Assembly (NCBI RefSeq): GCF_030384885.1
Contig: NZ_CP128613.1
Direction: 5' to 3' (one strand)
DNA from: Escherichia coli
Lineage (GTDB): Bacteria; Pseudomonadota; Gammaproteobacteria; Enterobacterales; Enterobacteriaceae
DNA: 64,000 bases
The translations under genes and the position numbers were made by a program. The notes under the pieces are model-generated. The model ran no database searches. It was not told the origin of the DNA and saw nothing but the letters and a program-made list of their open reading frames with translations. Below are positions 5,074 to 52,730 of this stretch, piece by piece. Numbering within the stretch: the stretch's first letter is position 1; the number at the start of each line of letters is the position of its first letter.

Positions 5074-6261
5074 TTACACAATTCGCGCAAAACCGGCGTC
5101 CAGATCGGCAATCAAATCATCGACATCTTCCAGACCAATATGCAGGCGAATCAAGGTCCCGCTAAAATCGATCTCGCCTTGCGGGCGAATGGCGGCGATA
5201 TGTTCTGGTTGATTTGCCAGGATCAACGATTCATACCCGCCCCACGAGTAGGCCATGCTGAATAAACTGTAGTTATCCAGATAGTTCGCCAGCTCTTCAT
5301 CATTGAGTTTTTTCTTAAGCACAAAGGAAAATAGCCCGCTGCTACCTGTAAAGTCTCGTTGCCAGAATTCGTGACCTTTACTGCCAGGCAGAGCAGGGTG
5401 GTTAACTCGCGCTACTTGCGGATGTTCCGCCAGCCATTCAGCTACTTTCAGGCTACTTTCGTGATGTTGACGCAGGCGAACACCCAAAGTGCGCAGGCCA
5501 CGACTGGTTATATAGGCGGTATCGGCATCGACCATCTGCCCCATCAGATAGGCATTCTCCCGTAGCTGCTCCCAGCAACGGGCATTGCATACGGCAGTAC
5601 CAATCATCGCATCTGAATGCCCAACCAGATATTTAGTAGCGGCCTGAATGGAAACATCAATGCCAAAATCCAGCGCCTTAAACAGCACGCCGGCCGCCCA
5701 GGTGTTATCGATCATAATGATGGCATCTGGCACTACACTGCGCACGGCGGCAACAATCGCCGGAACGTCGTGGACTTCCATGGTGATGGAGCCCGGCGAT
5801 TCCAGAAATACAATTTTAGTGTTTGGCTGTAGATGTTTAACAATATTCGCGCCAATCAGCGGATCAAACCACGATGTCGTTACGCCCAGTTTGCTGAGGA
5901 TTTTGCTACAGAAATCCTGACTCGGTTCATAGGCGGTGTTGGTCATCAACACATGATCGCCCTGTTTGACAAAAGCAAGAATGGAATTAGCAACCGCTGC
6001 TGCTCCGCAGGGGAACAGCACGCAGCCTGCGCCACCTTCCAGTTCGCACATCGCTTCTTGTAAGGAGAAATGGGTTAACGTTCCACGCCGTCCATAAAAC
6101 AACTCGCCATTGGCGCGATTGCGTGTCGCGTGTTTTTTGGCTTCCACACTGTCAAAGACCAGCGAAGACGCGCGCTGAATCACGCTATTTACCGCGCCGA
6201 GAGTGTATTTTTTGCTGCGTCCTGCGTTGACCAGTTGAGTATCAAGCTTGTTTTCCGCCAT
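5074..6261 (-). CDS. metC: cystathionine beta-lyase
   Basis: Track ORF 5074..6396; start trimmed to [25 protein letters not shown] (395 aa); PLP enzyme. Confidence 0.95.
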
Positions 6262-9446: not shown

Positions 9447-10487
9447 TCATTTATCGGAAGACGCCTGCCACAGATTCAGCTCGCCATCGGCGATATGCTG
9501 ATCAATCTGCGCCAGCTCCTCGGTGCTAAATGTCAGATTATTCAGCGCCTGCACGTTCTCCTCAAGTTGCTCCGCGCGGCTGGCACCAATCAATACCGAC
9601 GTCACTCGCTCATCTTTCAGCAACCAGCTTAACGCCATTTGTGCCATTGATTGTCCACGCTGCTGTGCCATTTCATTCAATAACCGCAGGCTGTTGAGGT
9701 TGGCTTCGGTGAGCATTTTCGGCGTCAGGCCACGAACTTTATTCCCTTCACGATGCATCCGTGAATCTTGCGGAATACCGTTGAGATATTTTCCGGTCAG
9801 CAATCCCTGAGCCAGAGGAGTAAAGGCAATGCAGCCCACGCCGTTATGTTGCAGGGTATCCAGCAGGCCGCTTTTATCCACCCAGCGGTTCAGTAAATTG
9901 TATGAAGGTTGATGAATTAACAGCGGAATTTTCCATTCGTGCAGCAACTCGACCATTTTTTGCGTCCGCTCTGGCGAGTAAGAGGAGATCCCGACATAAA
10001 GCGCCTTACCGCTTTGTACCGCATGAGCCAGCGCAGAGGCGGTTTCTTCCATCGGCGTATTTTCATCGACGCGATGAGAGTAAAAGATATCGACATACTC
10101 CAGCCCCATACGCTTCAGGCTTTGGTCGAGGCTGGCGAGCATGTATTTACGTGAGCCGCCAGAGCCGTACGGGCCGGGCCACATATCGTAGCCAGCTTTG
10201 GTAGAGATAATCAGTTCATCGCGATAAGCGGCAAAATCCTCCCGCAGCAGGCGACCAAAGTTCTCTTCTGCGCTTCCTGGAGGCGGCCCGTAATTGTTGG
10301 CTAAATCAAAGTGCGTAATGCCCAAATCAAACGCTTTGCGCAGGATCGCACGCTGTGATTCCAGTGCGTTAACGTGACCGAAATTGTGCCATAAACCGAG
10401 CGATAACGCGGGCAGGCGTAAACCGCTTTTTCCGCAATAGCGGTATTGCATCTGCCCGTAACGTTCGGGATTCGCTAACCAGACCAT
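9447..10487 (-). CDS. gpr: L-glyceraldehyde 3-phosphate reductase (aldo-keto reductase)
   Basis: Track ORF 9447..10598; start trimmed to MVWLANPERYGQMQYRYCGKSG (346 aa); YghZ/Gpr. Confidence 0.9.
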   Translation of the reverse strand: MVWLANPERYGQMQYRYCGKSGLRLPALSLGLWHNFGHVNALESQRAILRKAFDLGITHFDLANNYGPPPGSAEENFGRLLREDFAAYRDELIISTKAGYDMWPGPYGSGGSRKYMLASLDQSLKRMGLEYVDIFYSHRVDENTPMEETASALAHAVQSGKALYVGISSYSPERTQKMVELLHEWKIPLLIHQPSYNLLNRWVDKSGLLDTLQHNGVGCIAFTPLAQGLLTGKYLNGIPQDSRMHREGNKVRGLTPKMLTEANLNSLRLLNEMAQQRGQSMAQMALSWLLKDERVTSVLIGASRAEQLEENVQALNNLTFSTEELAQIDQHIADGELNLWQASSDK

Positions 10488-10640
10488 GACCTCTCCTTTC
10501 CACCATTCAATTTCGAAACAATGTTTCCAGTTTAGCGATTTACCAGGGGGGATCCCGTAGCATCGCTCACAGTGTGACGAAAAACTGGGCAAAAACACGT
10601 GCTTATGCTTTGCTTAAAAAAACACCAATTGAGGAGTACA

Positions 10641-14233: not shown

Positions 14234-15401
14234 TCCACAACCGCTGGGCGGCAAAATCATCAGTAAACCGGTCATGATTTTTGGACCGTTAATCGTCATC
14301 TGTATGCTCCTGATTGTGAAGCGTCTGGTGTTCGGTCTGGGCTCTGTCTCTGACCTGAACGGCGGCTTCCCGTGGGGCGTGTGGATCGCGTTTGACCTGT
14401 TGATCGGCACCGGCTTTGCCTGTGGCGGCTGGGCGCTGGCGTGGGCGGTATACGTCTTTAATCGTGGGCAATACCATCCGCTGGTGCGTCCGGCACTGTT
14501 GGCAAGTCTGTTTGGTTACTCACTGGGTGGCTTGTCGATCACTATCGACGTGGGGCGCTACTGGAACCTGCCGTACTTCTACATTCCGGGTCACTTCAAC
14601 GTGAACTCGGTACTGTTCGAGACGGCGGTCTGTATGACTATCTACATCGGCGTGATGGCACTCGAGTTTGCTCCGGCACTGTTTGAACGTCTGGGCTGGA
14701 AAGTATCGCTACAGCGTCTGAACAAGGTGATGTTCTTCATCATCGCGCTCGGCGCGCTGCTGCCAACCATGCACCAGTCTTCAATGGGGTCGCTGATGAT
14801 CTCGGCGGGCTACAAGGTGCATCCGCTGTGGCAAAGCTATGAAATGTTGCCGCTGTTCTCGCTGTTGACGGCGTTCATCATGGGCTTCTCGATTGTCATC
14901 TTTGAAGGTTCGCTGGTGCAGGCGGGTCTGCGTGGCAACGGTCCGGATGAAAAGAGCCTGTTCGTCAAACTGACCAACACCATCAGTGTGTTGCTGGCGA
15001 TTTTCATCGTGTTGCGCTTTGGCGAGCTGATCTATCGCGACAAGCTGTCGTTAGCGTTTGCCGGTGACTTCTACTCCGTGATGTTCTGGATTGAAGTCCT
15101 GCTGATGCTCTTCCCGCTGGTCGTTCTGCGTGTGGCGAAGCTGCGTAATGATTCCCGCATGCTGTTCCTGTCAGCACTGAGCGCACTGTTAGGTTGTGCA
15201 ACCTGGCGTCTGACCTATTCGCTGGTGGCATTCAACCCGGGCGGCGGTTACGCCTACTTCCCGACCTGGGAAGAACTGTTGATTTCTATTGGTTTTGTGG
15301 CTATTGAGATTTGCGCCTACATCGTACTCATTCGTCTACTGCCGATACTTCCTCCTTTAAAACAAAACGATCATAATCGTCATGAGGCGAGCAAAGCATG
15401 A
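14223..15401 (+). CDS. hybB: hydrogenase 2 membrane anchor (cytochrome b-like)
   Basis: Track ORF 392 aa polytopic; overlaps hybA stop. Confidence 0.95.
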
Positions 15402-25143: not shown

Positions 25144-25173
25144 TCACCAAATGGATAGGGGATGATTTAACGA

Positions 25174-25932
25174 ATGGATGCACTACAAACACAAACTGTT
25201 AATAGTACAACCGCGCCGCAGCCCAACTACATTCCGGGGCTGATTGCGGTGGTCGGGTGTGATGGCACCGGTAAATCCACACTGACCACTGACCTGGTGA
25301 AATCGCTGCAACAACACTGGCAAACCGAGCGCCGCTATCTGGGGCTGCTCTCCGGCGAAGACGGCGACAAAATCAAACGGTTGCCGCTCGTTGGCGTCTG
25401 GCTGGAACGGCGACTGGCGGCCAAATCCTCGAAAACCCAAAGCATGAAAACCAAATCTCCGGCGCTATGGGCGGCGGTGATTATGTACTGCTTCTCGCTG
25501 CGAAGAATGGTGAATCTACGCAAGGTTCAGCGACTGGCGCAAAGTGGCGTTCTGGTGGTCAGCGATCGCTTCCCGCAGGCTGAAATTTCGGGCTTTTATT
25601 ATGACGGACCGGGGATTGGCGTCGAGCGTGCGACCGGGAAAATCAGCATGTTTCTGGCACAGCGCGAACGGCGTTTATACCAAAAAATGGCGCAATACCG
25701 TCCTGAATTAATTATTCGTTTGGGGATTGATATTGATACTGCCATCTCCCGCAAGCCTGACCATGACTATGCCGAGCTGCAGGACAAAATCGGTGTCATG
25801 TCGACGATTGGCTATAACGGCACAAAAATTCTTGAGATTGATTCCAGAGCGCCCTACAGCGAAGTGCTGGAACAGGCACAGAAGGCGGTTTCTCTGGTTG
25901 CAATCGTTTCTGACCGCCGAAGTTTAACTTAA
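25174..25932 (+). CDS. yghR: P-loop NTPase (Walker A VGCDGTGKST), YghR/S/T paralog family
   Basis: Track ORF 252 aa MDALQTQTVNSTTAPQPNYIPGLIAVVGCDGTGKST... Confidence 0.88.
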   Translation: MDALQTQTVNSTTAPQPNYIPGLIAVVGCDGTGKSTLTTDLVKSLQQHWQTERRYLGLLSGEDGDKIKRLPLVGVWLERRLAAKSSKTQSMKTKSPALWAAVIMYCFSLRRMVNLRKVQRLAQSGVLVVSDRFPQAEISGFYYDGPGIGVERATGKISMFLAQRERRLYQKMAQYRPELIIRLGIDIDTAISRKPDHDYAELQDKIGVMSTIGYNGTKILEIDSRAPYSEVLEQAQKAVSLVAIVSDRRSLT

Positions 25933-25977
25933 GGTTGGCGGGATACTTTTTACTATCAACGATAAGGTCAGGCTGAA

Positions 25978-27327
25978 TTGGCGGGGTTTAACATCAAACA
26001 TTGGTTTGCAGATGGCGCGTTTCGCACCATTATTCGCAATAGCGCCTGGTTAGGCTCCAGTAATGTCGTGAGCGCTTTGCTGGGTCTGTTGGCGCTCTCG
26101 TGTGCCGGTAAAGGGATGACGCCCGCCATGTTTGGCGTACTGGTGATTGTGCAATCGTACGCCAAGTCGATCAGCGATTTTATTAAGTTTCAGACATGGC
26201 AGCTGGTGGTTCAGTACGGAACGCCAGCCTTGACCAATAATAATCCGCAGCAATTTCGCAATGTCGTCTCATTTTCCTTCTCGTTGGATATCGTCAGCGG
26301 CGCGGTGGCGATTGTCGGCGGCATTGCCTTACTCCCTTTTCTTTCCCATTCATTAGGTCTGGATGACCAAAGCTTTTGGCTGGCAGCGCTGTATTGCACG
26401 CTCATTCCTTCAATGGCTTCCTCCACACCGACCGGCATTCTGCGTGCGGTAGATCGCTTCGATTTGATTGCTGTACAGCAGGCGACGAAACCTTTTCTGC
26501 GCGCAGCGGGGAGCGTCGTAGCCTGGTATTTTGATTTTGGTTTTGCGGGTTTTGTTATTGCCTGGTACGCATCGAATCTGGTTGGCGGCACCATGTACTG
26601 GTGGTTTGCCGCGCGCGAATTACGCCGCAGAAATATCCATAACGCCTTCAAATTGAATCTGTTTGAGTCTGCCCGACACATTAAAGGCGCGTGGAGTTTT
26701 GTCTGGTCAACCAACATTGCCCACTCCATCTGGTCGGCACGTAACTCGTGCAGCACAGTGTTGGTGGGGATCGTGTTAGGACCCGCTGCCGCCGGGTTAT
26801 TTAAAATCGCCATGACATTCTTCGATGCCGCCGGAACGCCAGCGGGTTTACTGGGCAAAAGTTTTTACCCAGAGGTAATGCGTTTAGATCCGCGTACCAC
26901 CAGACCGTGGTTGTTAGGCGTGAAGTCCGGTTTACTGGCGGGCGGAATCGGTATTCTGGTGGCGCTCGCGGTGTTGATCGTCGGCAAGCCGCTCATTTCG
27001 CTGGTGTTTGGCGTTAAGTATCTCGAAGCGTATGACCTGATTCAGGTAATGCTTGGCGCAATTGTGATTTCGATGCTGGGCTTCCCACAGGAGTCATTGC
27101 TATTGATGGCGGGAAAACAGCGCGCTTTTCTCGTGGCGCAAACCATCGCCTCAATCGGCTACATCGTATTGCTGTTCATGTTCTGTCATCTGTTTGGCGT
27201 GCTGGGGGCTGCATTTGCTTACTTCGGTGGGCAATGTCTGGATGTGGTGCTCTCGTTAATTCCAACCTTAAAGGCATTTTTTCAGCGCCATTCCTTGCTT
27301 TATAACGCAGCCGGAGAGAAATCCTGA
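25978..27327 (+). CDS. yghQ: polytopic inner membrane protein, MOP/Wzx-type flippase-like; start codon uncertain (first ATG in frame at 26116)
   Basis: Track ORF 449 aa (non-ATG start at 25978); many hydrophobic helices; stop overlaps next gene start (TGATG). Confidence 0.8.
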   Translation: MAGFNIKHWFADGAFRTIIRNSAWLGSSNVVSALLGLLALSCAGKGMTPAMFGVLVIVQSYAKSISDFIKFQTWQLVVQYGTPALTNNNPQQFRNVVSFSFSLDIVSGAVAIVGGIALLPFLSHSLGLDDQSFWLAALYCTLIPSMASSTPTGILRAVDRFDLIAVQQATKPFLRAAGSVVAWYFDFGFAGFVIAWYASNLVGGTMYWWFAARELRRRNIHNAFKLNLFESARHIKGAWSFVWSTNIAHSIWSARNSCSTVLVGIVLGPAAAGLFKIAMTFFDAAGTPAGLLGKSFYPEVMRLDPRTTRPWLLGVKSGLLAGGIGILVALAVLIVGKPLISLVFGVKYLEAYDLIQVMLGAIVISMLGFPQESLLLMAGKQRAFLVAQTIASIGYIVLLFMFCHLFGVLGAAFAYFGGQCLDVVLSLIPTLKAFFQRHSLLYNAAGEKS

Positions 27328-28151
27328 TGATGAGAAAATATTTCCCGCTTGAGGCGAGCGAGCGTCTATTTATTGCAGTTGAAGAAGATGATGTCGTTGA
27401 TGCGCAGGTCAGTTTACCGCCGACTATCGCAACAGGTTGTACCACCGAAATCATTCATGATAATTACGCGTTATGCCTGCAATTCTGGCTGAATGGCGTT
27501 GATCGTCAGGAATTACTGCGTTTAATCCACAAACAAGCCAAAGGCGAGGGGCTTACGGCTGACGAGCGTAAACAGTTTAAATATATGCGGGCGCGTTATA
27601 AGCATCTGCGTTTCGCTCAGCGACTGTATCTGAAAAAACACAAGGCAGGATTTTTATTCGGCAAAACGACGGTATGTCTGGGCCATTTTCAGGATGGTTT
27701 CCGTAACGGTAAAAAAAATATTGTGTCGTATTACGGCAACCTGTTACGGATTTATTTAAGCTCTCCGGTCTGGTCGTTGGTGAACTATTCATTACGCCAT
27801 AGCCAGTTAGAAAGCGTAAGCGGTTTTATTGCCTATCGGCAAAAGCAAATGCATACCCTGAAAGAGATAATTGCCAAACCGCGACTAACCGGCAGGGAAT
27901 TTCATGATGTGCGAAAAATCATCAGCCAGCAGGTTTCTTATTACGACACCCTAAGATCGCTTGATCCTGAAAAAAAAGAAGCGTTACAGATTTCCCGCTT
28001 CCTCGCCGCCATTAATGGCCTGATGGGGGATAAACACGACGACATGGTGGCGGATGATATGGAAAACCGCCAGTCGTATGATGCACCGATGGCGCTGGAT
28101 AGCGATATTCGTCAGCGCTTAGAACTGCTGATTTCGCGTTTTCCGCTATAA
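27327..28151 (+). CDS. hypothetical soluble protein, no recognisable motif
   Basis: Track ORF 274 aa MMRKYFPLEASERLFIAVEEDD...; start overlaps yghQ stop; codon usage protein-like. Confidence 0.6.
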   Translation: MMRKYFPLEASERLFIAVEEDDVVDAQVSLPPTIATGCTTEIIHDNYALCLQFWLNGVDRQELLRLIHKQAKGEGLTADERKQFKYMRARYKHLRFAQRLYLKKHKAGFLFGKTTVCLGHFQDGFRNGKKNIVSYYGNLLRIYLSSPVWSLVNYSLRHSQLESVSGFIAYRQKQMHTLKEIIAKPRLTGREFHDVRKIISQQVSYYDTLRSLDPEKKEALQISRFLAAINGLMGDKHDDMVADDMENRQSYDAPMALDSDIRQRLELLISRFPL

Positions 28152-28159
28152 CCGGAGCA

Positions 28160-28723
28160 ATGATGTCATCTCGTTTGATTATTGCGCTGATTATCATGCT
28201 CTTAGCCCCGGGTGTGCAGGCACACAATTTCGTCACGGGTAAAACGGTTACCCCTGTTTATATCCAGGAAGGCGGCGAGCTGCTTCTGAATAGCGACGAC
28301 GAAATTCACTACCAAAAGTGGAACAGCACACAGCTGGCGGGAAAAGTCCGCATTATTCAGTATATCGCCGGGCGTAAGTCGGCGAAGAAAAAGAACTCAC
28401 TGTTAATTAAAGCGGTTGAAGCGGCAAACTTTCCGCAGGATCGTTTTCAGCCCACCACCATTGTGAACACCGATGATGCCATCTTTGGTACTGGCTATTT
28501 TGTCGTTGGCAAAATCGAAAAAAATAAACGCCGCTATCCGTGGGCGCAATTCGTTATTGACGGCAATGGACAGGGACGCGTTGCCTGGCGGTTGCCGGAG
28601 CAGAGTTCAACCATTCTGGTGCTGAATAAAGCCGGGCAAATTCAGTGGGCAAAGGACGGCAGCCTGACGCCGGAAGAGGTAGATCATGTCATTGCGCTGG
28701 CGCAGAAGCTGATCAATGAATAA
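28160..28723 (+). CDS. YtfJ-family periplasmic protein (paralog of core ytfJ), signal peptide MMSSRLIIALIIMLLAPGVQA
   Basis: Track ORF 187 aa; collinear similarity to remembered E. coli YtfJ (shared stretches VVQYIAGR.., TTIVNTDDAI, YPW.QFV.D, WAKDG.LTPEEV). Confidence 0.75.
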   Translation: MMSSRLIIALIIMLLAPGVQAHNFVTGKTVTPVYIQEGGELLLNSDDEIHYQKWNSTQLAGKVRIIQYIAGRKSAKKKNSLLIKAVEAANFPQDRFQPTTIVNTDDAIFGTGYFVVGKIEKNKRRYPWAQFVIDGNGQGRVAWRLPEQSSTILVLNKAGQIQWAKDGSLTPEEVDHVIALAQKLINE

Positions 28724-28752
28724 AAATTCAAAGGATTGAGGGCGTTAGTGAG

Positions 28753-29823
28753 ATGAAGCTGGTTGAACACTACATCATGCGTGGTACTCGCCGTCTGGTG
28801 CTGATTATCGTCGGTTTTCTGATCTTTATTTTCGCCAGCTACTCCGCACAGCGTTATCTGACCGAAGCGGCAAATGGGACATTAGCTCTTGATGTTGTGC
28901 TGGATATTGTTTTCTACAAGGTGCTGATTGCACTGGAGATGTTGTTACCTGTTGGACTGTATGTGTCAGTTGGCGTGACGCTAGGGCAGATGTATACCGA
29001 CTCGGAAATTACCGCTATTTCTGCGGCGGGGGGGAGTCCGGGACGCTTGTACAAAGCCGTTCTTTATCTGGCGATACCGCTAAGTATTTTTGTCACCCTT
29101 CTGTCGATGTATGGTCGTCCGTGGGCTTATGCGCAGATTTATCAACTGGAGCAACAGTCGCAGTCGGAGCTGGATGTTCGCCAGTTGCGGGCAAAGAAAT
29201 TTAACACTAACGATAACGGACGAATGATCCTTTCGCAGACGGTTGATCAGGATAATAATCGCCTGACTGACGTGCTGATTTATACTTCTACTGCCAATCG
29301 AACCCGTATTTTCCGCGCCCGTTCGGTTGATGTAGTTGACCCATCACCCGAGAAACCGACCGTTATGTTGCATAACGGGACCGCCTATCTTCTCGATCAT
29401 CAGGGACGTGACGACAACGAACAGATCTACCGTAATCTGCAATTGCATCTGAATCCGCTGGATCAAAGCCCTAACGTCAAACGCAAAGCAAAATCGGTCA
29501 CGGAGCTGGCGCGCTCCGCCTTTCCTGCCGATCATGCCGAACTGCAATGGCGACAAAGCCGTGGCCTGACAGCATTGTTGATGGCGCTGCTGGCCATTTC
29601 ATTAAGTCGGGTAAAACCGCGGCAAGGGCGATTTTCAACGTTATTGCCACTGACGTTGCTGTTTGTTGCCATTTTTTATGGCGGCGACGTCTGCCGTACG
29701 CTGGTGGCTAACGGCGCGATTCCCCTCATTCCTGGTTTGTGGTTAGTACCCGGACTCATGCTAATGGGCCTGCTGATGCTGGTCGCACGCGACTTCTCTT
29801 TGCTGCAGAAATTTTCCCGATGA
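28753..29823 (+). CDS. LptF-like permease (YjgP/YjgQ family), paralog of core lptF
   Basis: Track ORF 356 aa; N-terminal TM bundle, conserved YTDSEITAISAAG segment resembling LptF LYTESEITVMHACG, large periplasmic insert, C-terminal TMs. Confidence 0.8.
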   Translation: MKLVEHYIMRGTRRLVLIIVGFLIFIFASYSAQRYLTEAANGTLALDVVLDIVFYKVLIALEMLLPVGLYVSVGVTLGQMYTDSEITAISAAGGSPGRLYKAVLYLAIPLSIFVTLLSMYGRPWAYAQIYQLEQQSQSELDVRQLRAKKFNTNDNGRMILSQTVDQDNNRLTDVLIYTSTANRTRIFRARSVDVVDPSPEKPTVMLHNGTAYLLDHQGRDDNEQIYRNLQLHLNPLDQSPNVKRKAKSVTELARSAFPADHAELQWRQSRGLTALLMALLAISLSRVKPRQGRFSTLLPLTLLFVAIFYGGDVCRTLVANGAIPLIPGLWLVPGLMLMGLLMLVARDFSLLQKFSR

Positions 29824-30899
29824 ATGTTTTCAGTCGCTATTTAATCCGTCATCTCTTTCTCGGTTTTGCCGCCGCCGCAGGGCTATTGCTGCCGCTTTTT
29901 ACTACCTTCAACCTGATTAACGAACTGGATGATGTCAGCCCGGGTGGTTATCGCTGGACTCAGGCGGTGCTGGTGGTGCTGATGACCTTACCGCGCACAC
30001 TGGTCGAACTTTCGCCGTTTATCGCCTTATTGGGGGGGATTGTCGGCTTGGGGCAGTTATCGAAAAACAGTGAGCTTACCGCCATTCGCAGCACGGGGTT
30101 TTCTATCTTCCGTATTGCACTGGTGGCGCTGGTTGCCGGGATATTGTGGACTGTTTCATTAGGCGCGATAGATGAGTGGGTGGCGTCGCCATTGCAGCAA
30201 CAGGCGCTGCAAATCAAATCGACTGCCACTGCGTTGGGGGAGGACGATGACATTACCGGCAATATGCTGTGGGCCAGGCGTGGTAATGAATTTGTGACGG
30301 TGAAATCGCTGAACGAGCAGGGCCAGCCGGTGGGCGTGGAGATATTTCATTACCGCGACGATCTCTCGCTCGAATCCTACATTTATGCACGCAGTGCCAC
30401 CATTGAAGACGACAAAACGTGGATCCTGCATGGTGTGAATCATAAAAAATGGCTGAATGGCAAAGAAACGCTGGAAACATCTGATAATCTTGCCTGGCAA
30501 TCGGCCTTCACCAGTATGAATCTTGAAGAGTTATCGATGCCGGGAAATACTTTTTCTGTCCGTCAACTTAATCATTACATCCATTATTTGCAGGAAACCG
30601 GGCAACCCAGCAGCGAATACCGCCTTGCACTGTGGGAAAAACTGGGACAACCCATCTTGACCCTGGCGATGATTTTGCTGGCTGTGCCGTTTACCTTTAG
30701 TGCCCCGCGTTCGCCTGGGATGGGTAGCCGTCTCGCTGTAGGCGTCATCGTGGGCTTACTCACCTGGATCAGCTATCAAATCATGGTCAATCTGGGATTG
30801 CTATTTGCGTTGAGCGCACCTGTTACCGCGCTCGGTTTACCGATAGCGTTTATGCTGGTGGCGTTGAGCCTGGTGTATTGGTATGACAGTCAACATTAA
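29820..30899 (+). CDS. LptG-like permease (YjgP/YjgQ family), paralog of core lptG
   Basis: Track ORF 29739..30899; start trimmed to MNVFSRYLIRHLFLGF (359 aa), ATGA overlap with upstream permease; segment NSELTAIRSTGFS resembles LptG. Confidence 0.8.
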   Translation: MNVFSRYLIRHLFLGFAAAAGLLLPLFTTFNLINELDDVSPGGYRWTQAVLVVLMTLPRTLVELSPFIALLGGIVGLGQLSKNSELTAIRSTGFSIFRIALVALVAGILWTVSLGAIDEWVASPLQQQALQIKSTATALGEDDDITGNMLWARRGNEFVTVKSLNEQGQPVGVEIFHYRDDLSLESYIYARSATIEDDKTWILHGVNHKKWLNGKETLETSDNLAWQSAFTSMNLEELSMPGNTFSVRQLNHYIHYLQETGQPSSEYRLALWEKLGQPILTLAMILLAVPFTFSAPRSPGMGSRLAVGVIVGLLTWISYQIMVNLGLLFALSAPVTALGLPIAFMLVALSLVYWYDSQH

Positions 30900-30933
30900 A
30901 CCCGCCGTGGCGCAGCACCACAGCGGGCTCACA

Positions 30934-32106
30934 TTACTGCTTCAGAGTAGCAAATGCCTGAATGATGGCATCGATTTGCTCACGAGTGTGGGCAGCGTTT
31001 ACGCTACAGCGCAGCAGCGTGATGCCTGCAGGCGCGGCAGGTGGCAGGATAAGATTCACATAAACGCCCAGCGAAATAAGCTCGCGCCAGATGCGTAAAC
31101 CTTCCTCTTTCGAACCGATTATCACTGGCACTACCGGGCTAATATGTGAACTTAACTCGTAACCCAGTTTTTGCAGACCGTCATACAGATGGTTGGCGTT
31201 ATCCATCAGCTTTTGCCGCAACTCTGGTTGTGAGGCAATGGTTCTTAACGACGAGCGCACGGTCGCAATGCAGGACGGAGAAGGAGAGGCGGTAAAAATA
31301 TACGGGCGGCTGCCGTAGCGCAGCACTTCCATCGCTTCCGAACCGACAGCAAAACCGCCAATCGAGGCCAGACTTTTACTGAAAGTACCAACGATAATAT
31401 CCACATCATCTTCAACGCCAACGGCTTCAGCCAGTCCGCGCCCCGTTGCGCCTAACACGCCAAACGAATGCGCTTCATCGACAATCAAATAACCACCGAG
31501 ACGACGTTTGATATCAACAATTTCCGCCAGCGGCGCAATGTCACCGAGCATACTGTAGATGCCTTCAACGATGATAATCGCCTCTTTTGCCCGTTCACCG
31601 AGGCGAACCATGCGCCGTTCCAGATCTTTAGCATCGTTATGGCGGAAACGAATAATTTCCGCTCCACCGAGAGAACAGGCGTCATAAATACTGGCGTGGC
31701 TGTCGGCATCCAGTAACACTACGGCGTTATGGTCGGCAAGTGCGCTGATGACACCTAAATTAGCGGTATAACCGGTTGAAAAAACGATAGCGGTAGGGCG
31801 ATTGAAAAACTCGGCAATTTCTTTCTCTAACGCCAGATGTGGCGCATAGCTGCCATTAGCCATACGAGAACCGGTAGTGCCGGTGCCTTGGGCCGCTAAC
31901 GCTGCCTGACCTTCGGCGATGGCATCATGATTGAAGGTTAAACCGAGATAATTATTGGTCCCGGCCAGGATCACGTTTTTATCGCCGATCCGGCCTTCGG
32001 TGGCGGAATACACTTCATCAATACAGGTACCAAACGGCGTTAACCCGTTGTCACTAAATTGCAGTCGCTCGCCAGCAAGGCGCGCATATTTATCGTATAG
32101 CCCCAT
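30934..32106 (-). CDS. PLP-dependent alpha-oxoamine synthase, serine palmitoyltransferase-like (third AOS paralog besides bioF and kbl)
   Basis: Track ORF 390 aa; PLP-lysine motif IVGTFSKSLASIGG, DEAHSFG motif, glycine-rich GTGTTGSR segment; TAATG overlap with upstream ACP. Confidence 0.85.
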   Translation of the reverse strand: MGLYDKYARLAGERLQFSDNGLTPFGTCIDEVYSATEGRIGDKNVILAGTNNYLGLTFNHDAIAEGQAALAAQGTGTTGSRMANGSYAPHLALEKEIAEFFNRPTAIVFSTGYTANLGVISALADHNAVVLLDADSHASIYDACSLGGAEIIRFRHNDAKDLERRMVRLGERAKEAIIIVEGIYSMLGDIAPLAEIVDIKRRLGGYLIVDEAHSFGVLGATGRGLAEAVGVEDDVDIIVGTFSKSLASIGGFAVGSEAMEVLRYGSRPYIFTASPSPSCIATVRSSLRTIASQPELRQKLMDNANHLYDGLQKLGYELSSHISPVVPVIIGSKEEGLRIWRELISLGVYVNLILPPAAPAGITLLRCSVNAAHTREQIDAIIQAFATLKQ

Positions 32107-32354
32107 TATTTATTCTCCAGCCATGGAAGTAGAGTTTCCATTAATTGCGCAGGGGTTTTGACATCCAGCAGAATATTAATAGGAATGGAAATATCGAATC
32201 TGTCTTCCAGCATCATTAAGAGATCCATCACTTTGATCGACTCCAGGCCAAGATCGTTGACGAGATCGCTGTCGGGCTTAATTTCCACACCGTTTTCGAC
32301 CAAATCCTGTAAACAGGAAAGGATGTAATCCATTACTATTTCACGATTTACCAT
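32106..32354 (-). CDS. acyl carrier protein (dedicated), candidate phosphopantetheine site in DLGLESIKVMDL
   Basis: Track ORF 82 aa; acidic four-helix ACP-like sequence; position between reductase and AOS. Confidence 0.7.
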   Translation of the reverse strand: MVNREIVMDYILSCLQDLVENGVEIKPDSDLVNDLGLESIKVMDLLMMLEDRFDISIPINILLDVKTPAQLMETLLPWLENK

Positions 32355-32385
32355 AGAAACGTTAACACACCTTTAAACAAGACAA

Positions 32386-33300
32386 TCAAAATAGCCCGTT
32401 GCGTAATGCGTGTTCCAGGCTAATCCCGGGAAACCAATTAATATCTTCAGAAATACGGTTATTACTTGCTGACCAGTCGGTGTGGGTTAATTCACGGATT
32501 TTCGAGCGGGTCAGCATAGGTTCTTTACCTGCCAGGCGACTCAACGCGGTACTGATATCCGCAAGGCAGGTGAGTACCGACAGAGGAATACCAACCATTC
32601 GAACGGAACCGCAACGGGCGTCGGCGGCAAGTTGCTGTACGCGTTGCCAGTCATAGCCGCCGGCGACGCCATCGCATAATTCATAGGTTTGCGTCTGTAC
32701 AGTTTCGGCGCTTAACCACTGCCCCACGGCTTGCGCGAAATCGGTGACGTGCAGGAAAGAGAGCTGTGTATCTGGCGCACCAAGTCGTGGCAGCAGGCCG
32801 CGCAGCATCCAGTCAAACAGCGGTTTTAACTCTTTATCGCCGGGACCATACACGGCTGTCGGGCGAAAAATGCCCAGCGTAATTTCGTCAGCCATTGCGG
32901 TCAGTCGTTGTTCGGCGACGTGTTTGGAATTTGCGTACCAGGAGAGTTCGGGATGGCGCGCCGCCAGCGAAGAGATAAACAGAAAACGTTGGCAAAAGCC
33001 GCTCTCTTTTGCCGCTTGCATCAGGCGCAGGCTGCCGTCAACGTTACAGCGGGTAAAAATCTCTTCTTTGTGTCCGCGCACTTGCCCGGCGCAATGGACC
33101 ACCGCGCTGGCTCCGGCAACCAGTTCGCTAAGCGAATGTGTATCTTCCAGCGAACCGCGCACCCAGATGAGATTATCATTGACGTGAGCGCGGGCAGTAC
33201 GCGTCAATGCGCGAACGTGAAAGCCGCGGGCGAGCAGGTTATCGATAATATATTTACCGATAAACCCGGTAGCGCCCGTCACCGCGACAGTTTGATTCAT
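32386..33300 (-). CDS. NAD(P)-dependent reductase of the epimerase/dehydratase SDR type (candidate 3-keto-sphinganine/ceramide reductase)
   Basis: Track ORF 304 aa; N-terminal VAVTGATGFIGKY Rossmann motif, YANSK (YxxxK); ATGA overlap with upstream FAAL. Confidence 0.8.
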   Translation of the reverse strand: MNQTVAVTGATGFIGKYIIDNLLARGFHVRALTRTARAHVNDNLIWVRGSLEDTHSLSELVAGASAVVHCAGQVRGHKEEIFTRCNVDGSLRLMQAAKESGFCQRFLFISSLAARHPELSWYANSKHVAEQRLTAMADEITLGIFRPTAVYGPGDKELKPLFDWMLRGLLPRLGAPDTQLSFLHVTDFAQAVGQWLSAETVQTQTYELCDGVAGGYDWQRVQQLAADARCGSVRMVGIPLSVLTCLADISTALSRLAGKEPMLTRSKIRELTHTDWSASNNRISEDINWFPGISLEHALRNGLF

Positions 33301-35015
33301 GCCATTGATTCCTGCACATGAAGGCTTGCAGCATAACGTTTTTTCGCTTCCGCACGGGCAGGCTTGCCGGAGGACGTTCGGGGAATACTGTGGGGCGGCA
33401 ACAGATCGATAGCCGCTGTTACGCCAAATTCGCTTTGGATCCGTGCTGCCAGTGCGTGGATAAGCTGCCCACGACGTTCTTCGTCGCTGATCCTACACTG
33501 GATCTGCAAAATGATTTTTTCCTGGGCGGTAACAAAAGCAATCGCATCGCCAGAATGAATTTCCGGTTCCTGTTCCGCAATATATTCAATATCCTGCGGC
33601 CAGATATTACGGCCACGAATAATAATCAGATCTTTAATGCGCCCGGTGACATACAGATAACCGTCCAGCAGATAACCGAGGTCGCCGGTATCTAACCAGC
33701 CCGTCGCGGCAATCTCGTCTTGCGAAACCTGGTCGCCAAAGTAACCGCTCATCAGGCTGGGGCCGGAGATGCAAATATGGCCTACCACACGTTCCGCGAC
33801 TGGCATACCTGCTTCATTGCGGATTTCAATGCCATGTTCCGGCAACGCTTTACCGCAGTTGACGAAAGTCGATACGGCGCGTGTTTCAGCACCCGGCGTG
33901 ACGGCTTTGCCCTGATATTCAAGAATGTCGCGATCCACTTCGTTAACCACAACCCCGGAGGCTTCATCAGAGAAGCTGACAGCCAGCGCATTTTCTGCCA
34001 GTCCGTAGCACGGCATGAAAGTTTTATCGTCAAAGTTAACCTGACGGAAACATTCAGCGAATTGATGGAGTTGTTCTGCGGAGATCGGCTCAGCACCAAT
34101 ACCAGCAACGCGCCAGCAGGAAAGATCCAGTTCAGCGAGATCTTTTTCATTCACGCGGCGCTGGCACAATTCATAGCCAAACGGCGGCGCAACGGAAACG
34201 GTGCCGCGATTTTTACTGATCAATTTAAGCCATTGCAGAGGACGCATGGCAAAATCCTGAGTGCGCAAATAATCTACTGAGAGCTGCGTGGCGACGGGGG
34301 TCAGGAGAAAGCCGACCAGTCCCATATCATGGTAGAAAGGCAGCCAGGAGACGCAGCGGTCGCCAGGGCGTAATTTAATGCCATCGTGGCTTATAGCACG
34401 TAGATTAGCCATCACTTCGCGATGGGTGATAATGACGCCACGGGGAAAACGGGTGCTGCCGGAGGTGTACTGGAGGTAGGCGATATCGTTCGGAACTGGA
34501 CGCTGGAGTACAACATCGGCTTCCGGTAATGCCTTAAACCAGGCGTGGCTTAAAACATGTAATTCGGGGTTGTTATGCGTAGCAGCATTGACCAGTGGCA
34601 ACCACTCATCACCAGTGATAATGGCTGCGGGCTGGCAACTTGCCAGTAGACCCTGCAGTTTGGCGCTCCAGGAATCCCGCTGACCGACGCCCATTGGAAT
34701 TGCCAACGGGACGGCGACTAAGCCGGCATACTGGCAGGCAAAAAAAGCCTCTACAAACCCGCTACTCGTTTCGGCAATCAGCGCCACGCGATCGCCTTTT
34801 TTCAGATTCAGTGATAACAACCGCTTCGCACCAGCTTCGGCACGCGCTTTTAACGTCTGATATTCCAGTTGATCTTCAAGTTGGCAACGTCTGTCATAAA
34901 AATTCATTCCGGCGCTACTCAGAGCGGCGTAGTCCAAAGCATCAACCAGCGTTGGAAAATCGGCATAGCGCATAGGTAGGGAATGCGTAAAGATGTTATT
35001 AGACATATACACCAC
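33297..35015 (-). CDS. fatty acyl-AMP ligase / acyl-ACP synthetase (adenylate-forming); start at GTG 35015 or ATG ~35006
   Basis: Track ORF 572 aa; AMP-binding signature YTSGSTRFPRGV, second motif TGDLGY; first gene of the minus-strand operon. Confidence 0.85.
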   Translation of the reverse strand: MVYMSNNIFTHSLPMRYADFPTLVDALDYAALSSAGMNFYDRRCQLEDQLEYQTLKARAEAGAKRLLSLNLKKGDRVALIAETSSGFVEAFFACQYAGLVAVPLAIPMGVGQRDSWSAKLQGLLASCQPAAIITGDEWLPLVNAATHNNPELHVLSHAWFKALPEADVVLQRPVPNDIAYLQYTSGSTRFPRGVIITHREVMANLRAISHDGIKLRPGDRCVSWLPFYHDMGLVGFLLTPVATQLSVDYLRTQDFAMRPLQWLKLISKNRGTVSVAPPFGYELCQRRVNEKDLAELDLSCWRVAGIGAEPISAEQLHQFAECFRQVNFDDKTFMPCYGLAENALAVSFSDEASGVVVNEVDRDILEYQGKAVTPGAETRAVSTFVNCGKALPEHGIEIRNEAGMPVAERVVGHICISGPSLMSGYFGDQVSQDEIAATGWLDTGDLGYLLDGYLYVTGRIKDLIIIRGRNIWPQDIEYIAEQEPEIHSGDAIAFVTAQEKIILQIQCRISDEERRGQLIHALAARIQSEFGVTAAIDLLPPHSIPRTSSGKPARAEAKKRYAASLHVQESMA

Positions 35016-35377
35016 GAAAAAAATTGGATATCAGAAATAAAATGACAATAATGCGGTGGATTATATAGGCATAAAAGATAAATGAGATAGTATTTTCATC
35101 GGTGCGATATTGAACATTGATTTAAATAATAGGTTTGGCTTTGTTGTTTTTATTGTGAATGATATTTAATTTATGAATATATTAAGAAGAAGCCTTGTTT
35201 GGTTGCCTTAAATCGACAAAAGGCATTGAGGCGCTTCTGTGTAGTCTCTGACCTTATCTTAATTATTAATAAATACTATTTATTCTTTGTTTGTATTCAT
35301 TGGGTTGATTATTAAGATGCCGTTCGTTGCTGTTGCAATCTGTTTGTCACCGTTAATTATTTGTTATCCACAGAGAT
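35016..35377. promoter_or_regulatory. AT-rich divergent promoter region between the FAAL operon (-) and yghO (+)
   Basis: ~360 bp strongly AT-rich with A/T tracts; flanked by divergent start codons; typical of H-NS-bound, horizontally acquired regulatory regions. Confidence 0.5.
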
Positions 35378-46599: not shown

Positions 46600-47592
46600 A
46601 TGAATAAGAAATTTAAATATAAAAAATCGCTTTTAGCGGCTATTTTAAGCGCAACCTTATTAACCGGTTGTGATGGCGGTGGTTCAGGATCGTCCTCCGA
46701 TACGCCGTCTGTAGATTCTGGAGCAGGGACTTTGCCGGAAGTGAAACCCGATCCAATACCAACCCCGGAACCGACACCTGAGCCGACGCCGGACCCAGAA
46801 CCTACACCAGACCCGACACCCGATCCAGAGCCGACACCAGAACCGGAGCCAGAACCTGTTCCTACGAAAACGGGGTATCTGACCCTGGGCGGAAGCCAGC
46901 GGGTAACTGGTGCTACCTGTAATGGTGAATCCAGCGACGGCTTTACCTTTACGCCAGGCAATACCGTGAGTTGTGTGGTGGGCAGTACGACCATTGCAAC
47001 ATTCAACACCCAGTCAGAGACTGCGCGTAGCCTGCGTGCGGTTGACAAAGTGTCGTTTAGCCTTGAGGACGCGCAGGAGCTGGCGGATTCTGCAAATAAG
47101 AAAACCAACGCCATCTCTCTGGTGACGTCCAGCGACAGTTGCCCCGCAGATGCAGAACAGCTTTGTCTTACTTTCTCGTCAGTGGTTGATCGCGCGCGTT
47201 TTGAAAAACTGTATAAGCAAATTGATCTGGCAACAAACGATTTCAGCAAGCTGGTCAATGAAGAGGTGGAAAACAATGCTGCGACTGATAAAGCGCCGTC
47301 CACCCATACCTCAACGGTAGTGCCAGTCACGACAGAGGGAACAAAACCGGATCTGAACGCGTCCTTCGTGTCGGCTAACGCGGAACAGTTTTATCAGTAT
47401 CAACCAACTGAAATCATTCTTTCCGAAGGCCATCTGGTGGATAGCCTGGGGAACGGTGTTGCTGGCGTAGACTACTACACCAATTCAGGCCGTGGCGTAA
47501 CTGACGAAAACGGTAAATTCTCCTTTAGCTGGGGCGAAACCATCTCCTTTGGTATCGATACCTTTGAACTGGGCTCAGTACGCGGCAATAAG
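46600..47592 (+). pseudogene. yghJ: sslE/yghJ lipoprotein mucinase, 5' fragment only (~330 of ~1500 codons), then out-of-context tail to stop at 47664
   Basis: Track ORF 46582..47664; MNKKFKYKKSLLAAILSATLLTGCDGGG lipobox, PEPT-repeat linker, collinear with SslE N-terminus up to ...ISFGIDTFELGSVRGNK, after which similarity stops. Confidence 0.8.
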
Positions 47593-47603
47593 ATCCGCAG
47601 AAA

Positions 47604-47861
47604 ATTTTTAACTATATCCAGCTTACGCCTGTGCGTAAGGAGGGAATTGTCGGTTATGCAGTGAAGCCGGGGGCAGATCGTTCTCTGTTCGATGCCAGCG
47701 GTTTCAGGGAAGGCGATATCGCCATTGCGCTCAATCAGCAGGATTTCACTGATCCACGAGCAATGATTGCTCTGATGCGGCAGTTACCTTCAATGGATTC
47801 CATTCAACTTACGGTTTTACGCAAGGGTGCGCGCTACGACATTTCCATCGCGCTGCGCTAA
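47604..47861 (+). pseudogene. gspC: gspC (T2SS-beta) 3' fragment encoding only the C-terminal PDZ-like region
   Basis: Frame continuing into track ORF 47631..47861 reads ...NYIQLTPVRKEGIVGYAVKPGADRSLFDASGFREGDIAIALNQQDFTDPRAMIALMRQLPSMDSIQLTVLRKGARYDISIALR; no 5' part present. Confidence 0.7.
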
Positions 47862-47890: not shown

Positions 47891-48807
47891 GTGTTTTGGC
47901 GTGATATTACGTTGTCGGCCTGGCGTAAGAAGACAACTGGCCTCAAAACAAAAAAGCGTTTACTGCCGCTGGTGCTGGCAGCGGCATTATGCAGTTCACC
48001 GGTCTGGGCGGAAGAAGCCACTTTCACCGCTAATTTTAAAGATACCGACCTGAAATCGTTCATCGAAACCGTCGGCGCTAACCTTAATAAAACCATCATT
48101 ATGGGGCCGGGCGTACAGGGGAAAGTGAGTATTCGTACCATGACCCCACTCAATGAACGCCAGTATTACCAGCTATTCCTTAACCTGCTGGAAGCACAGG
48201 GGTATGCCGTCGTACCGATGGAAAACGACGTGCTGAAGGTGGTGAAATCCAGCGCCGCGAAAGTCGAGCCGCTGCCGCTGGTCGGTGAAGGCAGCGACAA
48301 CTACGCGGGCGATGAAATGGTCACCAAAGTAGTGCCGGTACGTAATGTGTCGGTCCGCGAACTGGCACCGATTTTGCGCCAGATGATCGACAGCGCAGGC
48401 TCAGGCAACGTTGTTAATTACGATCCCTCCAACGTAATTATGCTCACCGGACGCGCCTCCGTCGTAGAGCGCCTGGCGGTCTGATGGACGATCAGGCGGG
48501 AGAAAGCGTGGCGAAAGTGCCGCTGCTGGGCGATATCCCGTTGATTGGTAACCTGTTTAAATCGACGGCGGATAAAAAAGAAAAACGTAACCTGATGGTG
48601 TTTATCCGCCCGACCATTCTGCGTGATGGTATGGCGGCAGACGGCGTGTCGCAGCGCAAATATAACTATATGCGCGCCGAACAGATCTATCGCGATGAGC
48701 AAGGCTTAAGCCTGATGCCGCACACCGCGCAGCCGATATTGCCTGCGCAAAATCAGGCTCTACCGCCGGAAGTTCGTGCGTTCCTTAATGCCGGGAGAAC
48801 GCGTTAA
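47891..48807 (+). pseudogene. gspD: gspD secretin with large internal deletion/frameshift (N0-domain fragment 47891..48484 plus C-terminal fragment 48484..48807)
   Basis: Track ORFs of 197 aa (signal peptide + N0 domain, ends ...VNYDPSNVIMLTGRASVVERLAV) and 107 aa (secretin C-terminal motif VPLLGDIPLIGNLF) in different frames; intact GspD is ~650 aa. Confidence 0.8.
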
Positions 48808-50300
48808 TGGTGCCTGTAGCACAGGAAACCACTGCTAACACCGTGCGTCTGCCCTACAGTTTCAGCCGTCGGTTTAGCCTGGTGGCATGGTGCGAAGCGT
48901 CGCTGGAGATCCTCCATGTGCATCCGTTGTCGCTCTCTGTTTTGCAGGAGCTGCAACGGGGGCTGAACGCGCCCTTTACGCTGCGGCAAATCGACGAAGC
49001 CGAATTTGAACAGCGGCTGAATGCGGTCTGGCAACGGGACTCTTCCGAGGCCCGCCAGCTGATGGAAGATCTCGGTTCTGCTGAGGACTTTTTTACCCTC
49101 GCGGAAGAACTGCCGGAAACGGAAGATCTGCTGGAAAGTGACGATGATGCGCCGATCATCAAACTGATCAACGCCATGCTGGCAGAGGCGATTAAAGAAG
49201 GCGCTTCGGATATCCACATCGAGACGTTTGAAAAGAGTCTGGTGATCCGTTTTCGCGTTGACGGCACATTACATGAAATGCTGCGTCCGGGGCGCAAACT
49301 GGCCTCGCTGCTGGTATCGCGTATTAAGGTGATGGCACGGCTGGATATCGCCGAAAAACGCGTACCGCAGGATGGGCGCATTGCGCTGCTGCTGGGCGGT
49401 CGGGCGATTGACGTGCGTGTCTCCACCATGCCTTCCGCCTGGGGCGAGCGCGTGGTGCTGCGACTGCTGGACAAAAACCAGGCCCGCCTGACGCTGGAAC
49501 GTCTGGGGTTGAGCCATGAACTGACCGCGCAGTTGCGCCAGCTACTGCACAAACCGCACGGCATCTTTCTGGTGACGGGGCCGACAGGTTCCGGCAAAAG
49601 CACCACGCTGTACGCCGGATTGCAGGAGCTGAACAACCACTCGCGCAACATTCTCACGGTTGAAGACCCCATCGAATACATGATTGAAGGGATCGGTCAG
49701 ACACAGGTTAACACCCGCGTCGGCATGACCTTCGCCCGTGGCCTGCGCGCGATTTTGCGTCAGGACCCGGATGTGGTGATGGTCGGTGAAATCCGCGATA
49801 CCGAAACCGCAGAAATCGCCGTCCAGGCGTCATTGACCGGACACCTGGTACTTTCCACGCTGCATACCAACACGGCGGTGGGGGCGATCACGCGTTTGCA
49901 GGATATGGGCGTTGAGCCTTTCCTGCTCTCTTCCAGCCTGACGGGCGTGATGGCGCAGCGACTTGTTCGCACACTGTGCACCGACTGCCGCCAGCCCGCG
50001 CCTGCCACTGATGAAGAAAAACGCCTGCTGGGAATTACCGATGTGCGTACCGTCACGCTGTACCATCCGCAGGGCTGCCCCGCCTGTAATCACAAAGGTT
50101 TTCGCGGGCGTACTGCCATCCATGAGCTGATCGTGGTAGACGCCACATTGCGTGATTTGATTCACCGTCAGGCCGGGGAACTGGAGCTGGAACGTTATGT
50201 CCGGCAACACTCTGCGGGTATCCGCAGCAACGGCATTGAGAAAGTGCTTGCCGGAGAAACCTCTCTCGATGAAGTGCTGCGGGTAACGATGGAGGCGTAA
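48807..50300 (+). CDS. gspE: type II secretion ATPase GspE (reading frame intact)
   Basis: Track ORF 497 aa; Walker [10 protein letters not shown], tetracysteine CTDC...CPAC motif. Confidence 0.9.
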
Positions 50301-50995
50301 TGGCACTGTTTTACTATCAGGCGTTACAGCGTAATGGTCGCAAAACCAAAGGCATGATTGAGGCGGATTCCGCGCGTCATGCCCGCCAGTTGTTGCGCGG
50401 TAAAGAGCTTATCCCCGTACACATTGAAGCCCGGATGAATGCTTCGTCAGGGGGAATGTTGCAGCGTCGGCGACACGCACATCGTCGTGTGGCGGCGGCA
50501 GATCTGGCGCTGTTCACTCGCCAACTGGCAACGCTGGTGCAGGCAGCAATGCCGCTGGAAACCTGCTTACAGGCGGTCAGTGAGCAAAGTGAAAAACTGC
50601 ATGTAAAAAGCCTCGGAATGGCGCTACGCAGCCGGATTCAGGAAGGTTACACCCTGTCGGACAGCCTGCGCGAACATCCCCGCGTCTTTGACTCCCTGTT
50701 TTGTTCGATGGTGGCTGCCGGAGAAAAATCCGGGCATCTCGACGTGGTGCTCAATCGCCTGGCGGATTACACCGAACAGCGACAGCGCCTGAAATCACGC
50801 CTGCTGCAGGCCATGCTCTATCCGCTGGTACTGCTGGTGGTGGCAACGGGCGTGGTCACTATTTTGCTGACGGCGGTGGTGCCGAAAATTATCGAACAGT
50901 TTGATCATCTCGGACACGCGCTGCCTGCCTCCACCCGCGCTCTTATCGCTATGAGCGACGCGTTGCAGACCAGCGGCGTTTACTGGCTGACCGGT
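50300..50995 (+). pseudogene. gspF: gspF inner-membrane platform protein, 3'-truncated (~230 of ~400 codons); ORF continues into unrelated sequence to 51088
   Basis: Track ORF 50300..51088 262 aa; GspF-like N-terminal cytoplasmic domain and first TM; last ~30 residues non-GspF. Confidence 0.75.
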
Positions 50996-51239
50996 GCCAT
51001 GTATCACGGGCCTGTGCATCCATTAAGGAAAGCATCCCTGAACGTTGCATCAGGTCACGCCAGATTTCGCGATCGAGATTGCGTGTGATGGCTTTCATTG
51101 CGGTTTCCGGTTTCTCCATCAGCCAGCAGCCGCAGCGAAAATCCTGTTTCATGGCCCAGTCCGGGGCGGCTTTACCGCCAATACTTTCTGTCATTGCTGA
51201 TATTTCAGCCAGTTGCCGGATAAGTGTGTCGTGTAGTGG

Positions 51240-52539
<1,300 letters not shown>

Positions 52540-52654: not shown

Positions 52655-52730
52655 TGGTGCCCGGACTCGGAATCGAACCAAGGACACGGGGATTTTCAAT
52701 CCCCTGCTCTACCGACTGAGCTATCCGGGC
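52655..52730 (-). tRNA. pheV: tRNA-Phe (GAA anticodon)
   Basis: Reverse complement reads GCCCGGATAGCTCAGTCGGTAGAGCAGGGGATTGAAAATCCCCGTGTCCTTGGTTCGATTCCGAGTCCGGGCACCA, the E. coli tRNA-Phe sequence. Confidence 0.97.

Follow-up and report, generated by a model that had tools for sequence, protein, structure and literature searches.

Stepwise decay of the pheV-adjacent T2SS-beta operon in an Escherichia clone and the probable origin of its internally deleted gspD-beta remnant

What remains of a secretin gene whose two ends lie side by side in different reading frames, and how did it reach this state? The question is raised by positions 47891-48807 of the window, the whole stretch of 64,000 nucleotides of Escherichia coli DNA that was analysed. 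A preliminary description of this DNA had noticed an ORF of 197 aa and, next to it, one of 107 aa in this interval and had read them as gspD with a large internal, out-of-frame deletion, representing a second and independent lesion in the same secretion system. The reading that is favoured here, with high confidence, is that the interval holds a dead gspD-beta, which suffered an in-situ 1,144-bp short-homology deletion as a secondary hit in the stepwise decay of its operon.

The neighbouring genes show that this is the chromosomal T2SS-beta operon, which lies between glcA and tRNA-Phe (pheV). The gene order is glcB, glcA, sslE', gspC', the gspD' pieces, gspE, gspF', a DUF4942 remnant, an IS3-family element, pheV, yqgA and speC. 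Two strains with an intact locus, R32_14_1F (L001) and 2013C-4282 (L007), served as references. Relative to these, the window shows three gaps between colinear blocks, which are termed J1, J2 and J3. A further genome, GCA_904842275.1 (hereafter L008), was found by looking up the 354-aa fusion product specific to J1. The locus comprises the following features:

46600-47592, plus strand: sslE', codons 1-331 of ~1520 of the gene for the SslE lipoprotein metalloprotease; 100% identical to 2013C-4282 up to 47592.
47590-47592, no strand: J1, a deletion of 5,849 bp, or 5,679 bp relative to R32_14_1F, with 3-bp microhomology (AAG) and no IS.
47593-47861, plus strand: gspC' 3' remnant with a 76-aa ORF (47631-47861) covering the PDZ part, with a weak PDZ_2 match; it aligns to the end of gspC in both reference strains.
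47891-48484, plus strand: gspD' N-terminal fragment of 197 aa with a GTG start, consisting of native residues 1-195, two frameshifted codons (A, V) and TGA.
48472-48479, no strand: J2 hybrid repeat CCTGGCGG, the one copy left after the 1,144-bp gspD deletion.
48480-48807, plus strand: DNA of the gspD' C-terminal fragment, native residues ~577-686, the end of the secretin core and the S-domain.
48807-50300, plus strand: gspE, T2SS ATPase, an intact 497-aa frame and the only complete gsp gene remaining.
50300-50989, plus strand: gspF', the first 230 of 407 codons; reading continues through unrelated antisense sequence as far as 51088, giving a 262-aa product.
50988-50989, no strand: J3, gspF' codon 230 joined to the antisense strand of the DUF4942 remnant, with no IS.
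50990-51230, minus strand: DUF4942-domain gene remnant, pheV-side island debris, already a pseudogene in 2013C-4282; 100% identical to that strain from its position 36985 on.
51240-52417, minus strand: IS3-family transposase, orfAB with programmed frameshift, present at the same site in 2013C-4282 with 100% identity, adjoining pheV.
52655-52730, minus strand: tRNA-Phe (pheV), beside the IS3-family element.

At J1, codon 331 of sslE, a gene that bears this name in the annotation of both reference strains as well, runs directly, in a shifted frame, into the ~90 terminal codons of gspC, and the ORF continues to 47664 to give the 354-aa product. This junction takes out the rest of sslE, pppA, gspS-beta (yghG) and ~70% of gspC. 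Its 3 perfect bp of microhomology have a probability of p~0.055 in a random-deletion simulation. The deletion at J3, where a TG microhomology lies inside a 6/8 imperfect repeat, measures 22,152 bp when compared with 2013C-4282, or 1,526 bp when compared with L008. In 2013C-4282, the intact sslE-gspM operon is followed by the kps capsule cluster, and relative to this strain the window has lost the stretch from the 3' end of gspF to gspM together with the complete group-2-like kps cluster. The locus is consequently without pppA, gspS and gspG-M and carries sslE, gspC, gspD and gspF as fragments; the set of core genes C to M plus a prepilin peptidase that makes up a functional T2SS-beta operon is not found there.

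The whole 64-kb window contains one IS, and inspection of all three junction sequences revealed no IS or foreign sequence at J1, J2 or J3. An IS-mediated deletion was rejected on this ground, and also because the intact strain 2013C-4282 carries an identical copy of the nearby IS3 element. This element and the DUF4942 remnant are considered bystanders, since both recur with 100% identity in this intact sister strain.

Inside gspD, 1,144 bp (1 mod 3) are missing in comparison with R32_14_1F, 2013C-4282 and L008, with colinear and near-identical sequence on either side. In megablast searches, complete intact loci likewise span 2,645 bp against the 1,501-bp window query. The alignment to full-length gspD-beta shows this single gap, and with 917 bp left of the 2,061-bp intact gene, a one-base correction cannot rebuild it. 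The large out-of-frame deletion seen in the preliminary description is thereby upheld, as are the two adjacent ORFs in different frames (ORF list, Pfam) and the statement that they amount to less than half of GspD, their sum being 304 aa compared with 686 aa for intact GspD-beta. The junction, which had been placed near 48480-48500, is real, but its true position is ~10 bp further left, at 48472-48479; in the alignments to the two reference strains the gap falls at ~48471-48479. The description of the domain content was correct in naming the signal peptide with N0 and the C-terminal end, and it left unmentioned that most of N1 and ~47 residues of the secretin core are retained as well.

A search for direct repeats at the junction was positive. 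Two imperfect 8-bp direct repeats, CCTGACGG on the left (L008 9873-9880) and CTTGGCGG on the right (L008 11017-11024), match at 6 of 8 positions, and one hybrid copy of them is kept in the window. Near J2, the window differs from L008 at 48473 and 48476 only, which are both positions where the repeat copies differ, and the crossover is therefore placed in the shared central TG at 48474-48475. When 200,000 random deletions were simulated in the intact locus, a 6/8 match at the junction had a probability of p~0.023. The perfect microhomology at J2 is 2 bp; at least 2 bp were found at random junctions with p~0.16, which is not unusual alone. Neither an IS, a mobile element, a site-specific recombination site nor long homology was found at J2, and gspD sequence is present on both sides. 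Repeats at both breakpoints with one hybrid copy kept are the pattern of a short-homology deletion. The imperfect 8-bp repeat and the absence of these alternatives point to short-homology illegitimate recombination or replication slippage as the probable origin of the junction.

Which parts of the protein are affected can be read from the domain architecture. In the intact GspD-beta of 686 aa, Pfam places N0 at residues 48-117, followed by three Secretin_N repeats, Secretin at 465-626 and then the C-terminal S-domain. The ancestral-type protein of L008 matches the cryo-EM PDB chain 5zdh over residues 41-686, the crystal chain 3oss (N0-N1) over 39-205 and 3ezj (N0-N1-N2) over 39-277, and it scores 1381 bits to 5zdh as opposed to 545 bits to GspD-alpha 5wq7. 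Both neighbouring ORFs within 47891-48807 derive from gspD according to Pfam and the alignment to intact GspD-beta. The 197-aa ORF, whose N-terminal sequence is identical to that of intact homologues, carries a Sec signal peptide and a complete N0 (PF21305) at residues 48-117 (E=1.7e-24). Its Secretin_N/N1 match at residues 145-195 covers profile positions 1-56 of 69, so that N1 is truncated, and of the three repeats N1, N2 and N3 this truncated N1 is the only one present in the window. The frameshift creates a TGA at 48482-48484, which overlaps the native Met580 (ATG, 48484-48486). At this methionine starts the 107-aa ORF (48484-48807, plus strand), which is without a signal peptide. Its match to Secretin (PF00263) spans profile positions 124-169 of 169 (E=3.7e-15), the last quarter, and in this piece the S-domain is preceded by ~47 residues of the secretin core.

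Lost from gspD are residues 196-576; these comprise the last part of N1, N2 and N3 in full, and ~70% of the secretin core, with the barrel and the gate among the missing parts. A complete secretin core in frame with the N-domains does not exist in the window, as the surviving part of the core lies in the other frame; the S-domain DNA (48484-48807) is unlinked, and the operon-encoded partner gspS-beta was removed by J1. Descent from gspD-beta is evident from sequence and synteny, with 97-99.98% DNA identity to annotated gspD and a position in the glcA-pheV locus. In terms of its sequence, the gspD of the window is a pseudogene of gspD-beta (Vibrio-type secretin) and a putatively non-functional member of this group. 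Since the 197-aa product is without barrel, gate and S-domain and the 107-aa product, if it is formed, without a signal peptide, the remnant would be unable to yield a pore, a loss of function predicted from the domain content; some of the N0-N1 fragment may still be produced.

The relative age of the lesions is indicated by L008, whose three blocks match the window at 99.98%, 99.96% and 100% identity. In this genome J1 is present, whereas gspD (686 aa), gspE and gspF are intact. L008 has its own downstream junction at 14279-14294, where gspG' (72 aa) is joined to sequence upstream of DUF4942. This junction spans a ~16-bp imperfect repeat (GGATAACGGGCGTTAT / GGATAACAGGGATGTTAT), and the deletion is ~20.6 kb in size. 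J1 is thus found without J2 in L008-type loci, and every contig with J2 that reaches upstream has J1 too. These observations support the view that J2 arose later than J1 and independently of it, in agreement with the preliminary description, which had counted the gspD deletion as a second lesion; J3 is a third. Contigs with J2 and without J3, or with J3 and without J2, were not found among the public contigs with enough sequence.

The J2 junction was recovered at 99.97-100% identity in four independent assemblies, namely GCA_036346665.1 and the Logan assemblies SRR16760859, SRR34489103 and SRR14995614. All four share the whole three-junction architecture, and their short-read contigs stop at the start of the IS3 element. 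The exact 197-aa product occurs on 9-11 public contigs, the J3 product on 11 and the 354-aa product of J1 on 14. Among 5,426 complete E. coli genomes, there is none that covers at least 80% of a 221-bp J2 junction probe in megablast, which argues for a lineage-specific allele that is apparently confined to one recent clone. With a gspC-D-E query, ~31% of the same 5,426 genomes gave no match, and a further ~10% gave partial matches only.

The clone itself can be placed through its flanks. Compared with 2013C-4282, which is listed as an stx1-positive Escherichia cryptic clade I strain with a complete genome sequence (PMC10100065), the left flank of the window shows 5 SNPs and one G7/G6 homopolymer indel in 43,149 bp, and the right flank shows 0 differences in 9,997 bp. 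The next-best genomes are ~99% identical over the flanks. The host is, as far as these flanks indicate, near-clonal with this cryptic clade I strain. Shigella, which the IS element and the pseudogenes had suggested as the host, was rejected in view of these flanks and of the single IS in 64 kb. The interval from J1 to J3 differs from 2013C-4282 by ~100 substitutions in a mosaic arrangement, at 96.6-98.3% identity. The patches lie at 48349-48476 and 48736-50804 of the window (9750-10590 and 11281-13999 in L008 coordinates, with 690 identical bases between them), are 4-10% divergent, and have substitutions spaced at multiples of three. They are common to the window and L008, and their boundaries match none of the three junctions. 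The patches may be read as ordinary homologous-recombination patches older than J2. Since L008 carries the same divergent gsp allele with an intact gspD, the recombination tract would predate J2 and be independent of it. The possibility that J1 and J3 are the edges of an imported foreign segment was rejected, because the patches miss all junctions and are present in L008.

From these data, a history of the locus can be proposed. With J1, the operon would first have lost its substrate gene sslE, the prepilin peptidase gene pppA, the pilotin gene gspS-beta and most of gspC. J2 would then have occurred in situ, by short-homology recombination of the RecA-independent type or by slippage between the 8-bp repeats, and would have taken residues 196-576 and shifted the frame of gspD. 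Within one cryptic clade I clone, the decay may thus have run from the intact state, represented by 2013C-4282, through J1 plus a downstream deletion (L008 type) to the combination of J1, J2 and J3 in the window.

Other explanations of the gspD remnant have to be weighed against this history. That it results from a sequencing or assembly artefact, or from a one-base frameshift in a full-length gspD, is hardly conceivable: such an error would account for two neighbouring ORFs in different frames and for nothing else, whereas 1,144 bp are missing in comparison with every intact reference and four independent assemblies, made from different runs, show the identical junction. It is very improbable that the deleted allele was imported ready-made from another E. 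coli by homologous recombination. Such an import would explain the ~100 mosaic substitutions between J1 and J3 in a region whose flanks of 50+ kb are essentially identical to 2013C-4282, and recombination did touch the region in the lineage of either the window or 2013C-4282. However, L008 has the same divergent gsp allele with gspD intact, the J2 junction is in no other genome among the 5,426, and the boundaries of the divergent patches do not match J1, J2 or J3. It is likewise very improbable that the 197-aa fragment, or gspE, is still functional, for instance by acting as a decoy in the periplasm or by pairing with another T2SS in the cell. In support of this, the signal peptide of the fragment is intact and its N0 complete, and gspE is still an intact 497-aa ORF. 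Against this stand the truncated N1, the frameshifted residues at the end of the fragment, the destruction of GspC as the partner of N0, and the confinement of the allele to one recent clone; an intact gspE is expected by chance soon after the death of an operon.

Pilotin-less PulD-type secretins induce the Psp response, and a secretin that has lost its pilotin might be a burden. It is possible, if unlikely, that J2 was positively selected because the deletion of the core relieved the envelope stress caused by an inner-membrane orphan secretin after the loss of the pilotin. This reading also supposes that gspD, brought nearer to the sslE promoter by J1, would still be driven by it. In favour of selection, GspD-beta without GspS forms multimers that are inserted in the inner membrane (PMC10329019), and L008, with an intact gspD and no pilotin, is the predicted intermediate. 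Moreover, 3-4 deletions have gathered at the locus compared with only ~5 SNPs in 53 kb of flanks. Yet L008-type genomes with an intact gspD and no pilotin persist in public data, and deletions are known to be frequent at this locus (PMC3707838). Independent gspD truncations also occur in pilotin-bearing lineages (L014-L019 and L002, described below), so that a driver of this kind is not needed. A general coupling of gspD loss to pilotin loss was rejected, as the pilotin is present in the sampled truncated alleles L014-L019. If J2 was nevertheless selected, the locus would illustrate, in nature, a compensatory pseudogenisation whose order is set by protein toxicity. On balance, the in-situ short-homology deletion is preferred, and J2 was probably neutral. 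It is a case of ordinary pseudogene decay, already known in kind, at the pheV-adjacent T2SS-beta locus.

Similar events have been described at this site. The T2SS-beta operon is a neighbour of the hypervariable pheV site, and several E. coli lineages have lost it independently of one another; in K-12, an internal deletion in T2SS-beta has removed gspD-K (PMC3707838). The K-12 remnant (yghJ/sslE-pppA-yghG-yghF-yghE-yghD) resembles the window in that the same operon at the same pheV site has undergone an internal, IS-free deletion (PMC3707838). Unlike the window, K-12 has one deletion, which fused gspC' to gspL', and it retains sslE, pppA and the pilotin. The window has three deletions with other endpoints; sslE (apart from its 5' fragment), pppA and gspS are gone, whereas gspE and pieces of gspD and gspF are left. 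In megablast, K-12-type genomes match the gspC part only of the gspC-D-E query. GspD-beta of ETEC H10407 (5ZDH, GspD-GspS; 3EZJ and 3OSS, N-domains) has the same order N0-N1-N2-N3-secretin-S as the L008 protein. Unlike this protein, the allele of the window is without residues 196-576 and is frameshifted, so that neither a 15-mer barrel nor a gate would be formed.

A homologous T2SS cluster is also decaying in Shigella flexneri serotype 6 and S. boydii, where gspC, gspD and gspE are pseudogenes (PMC11708030). There, too, gspD is split into two ORFs, in a host-restricted lineage (PMC11708030). The Shigella lesions are reported to be small frameshifts with all 13 genes present, unlike the kilobase deletions of the window (PMC11708030). 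Among E. coli, the lineage of L002 (GCA_025285195.1) has an 8-bp tandem duplication (GATCGTGC) at 5971-5986, which splits gspD into 581 + 107 aa in an otherwise complete operon. This duplication sits ~20 bp upstream of the right J2 breakpoint of the window, in a different E. coli lineage. The L002 allele is found on 20+ contigs, yet in 1-2 of the 5,426 complete genomes. In L014-L016, a gspD' of 231 aa lies directly before gspM, followed by yqgA and speC, and in L017-L019 a gspD' of 222 aa is followed by an EAL-domain gene; pppA, gspS and gspC are intact upstream in both groups. The truncations in L002 and L014-L019 differ from that of the window in their breakpoints and lineages, and in that the pilotin and gspC are kept.

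SslE is a vaccine candidate antigen, and the clone lacks it; it has also lost the kps capsule locus that is present in 2013C-4282. Export of SslE or of other T2SS-beta substrates through this locus is predicted to be impossible in the strain. For annotation, gspD, gspC, gspF and sslE at the locus should be treated as pseudogenes. The value of the case is modest, and it has little importance beyond annotation: it provides a fully resolved stepwise decay of an operon, with an intact sister, a public intermediate, a final state and base-exact breakpoints. The junction sequences of J1, J2 and J3 can be used as lineage markers.

Two minor observations concern the left part of the window. At 29028, within the ORF 28753-29823, an lptF paralogue has a G7 run and an open frame of 356 aa in the window, and G6 in 2013C-4282, where it is annotated as 'frameshifted'; slipped-strand variation may account for this, or one of the two genomes may contain a sequencing error. 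Between yghS and yghO, at ~25170-35020, lies an accessory cluster with a sphingolipid-like or lipid-export gene set. According to the annotation of the sister strain, it encodes an LPS-biosynthesis protein, a YtfJ family protein, lptF/lptG paralogues, serine palmitoyltransferase (spt), an acyl carrier protein, an epimerase/dehydratase and a fatty acyl-AMP ligase.
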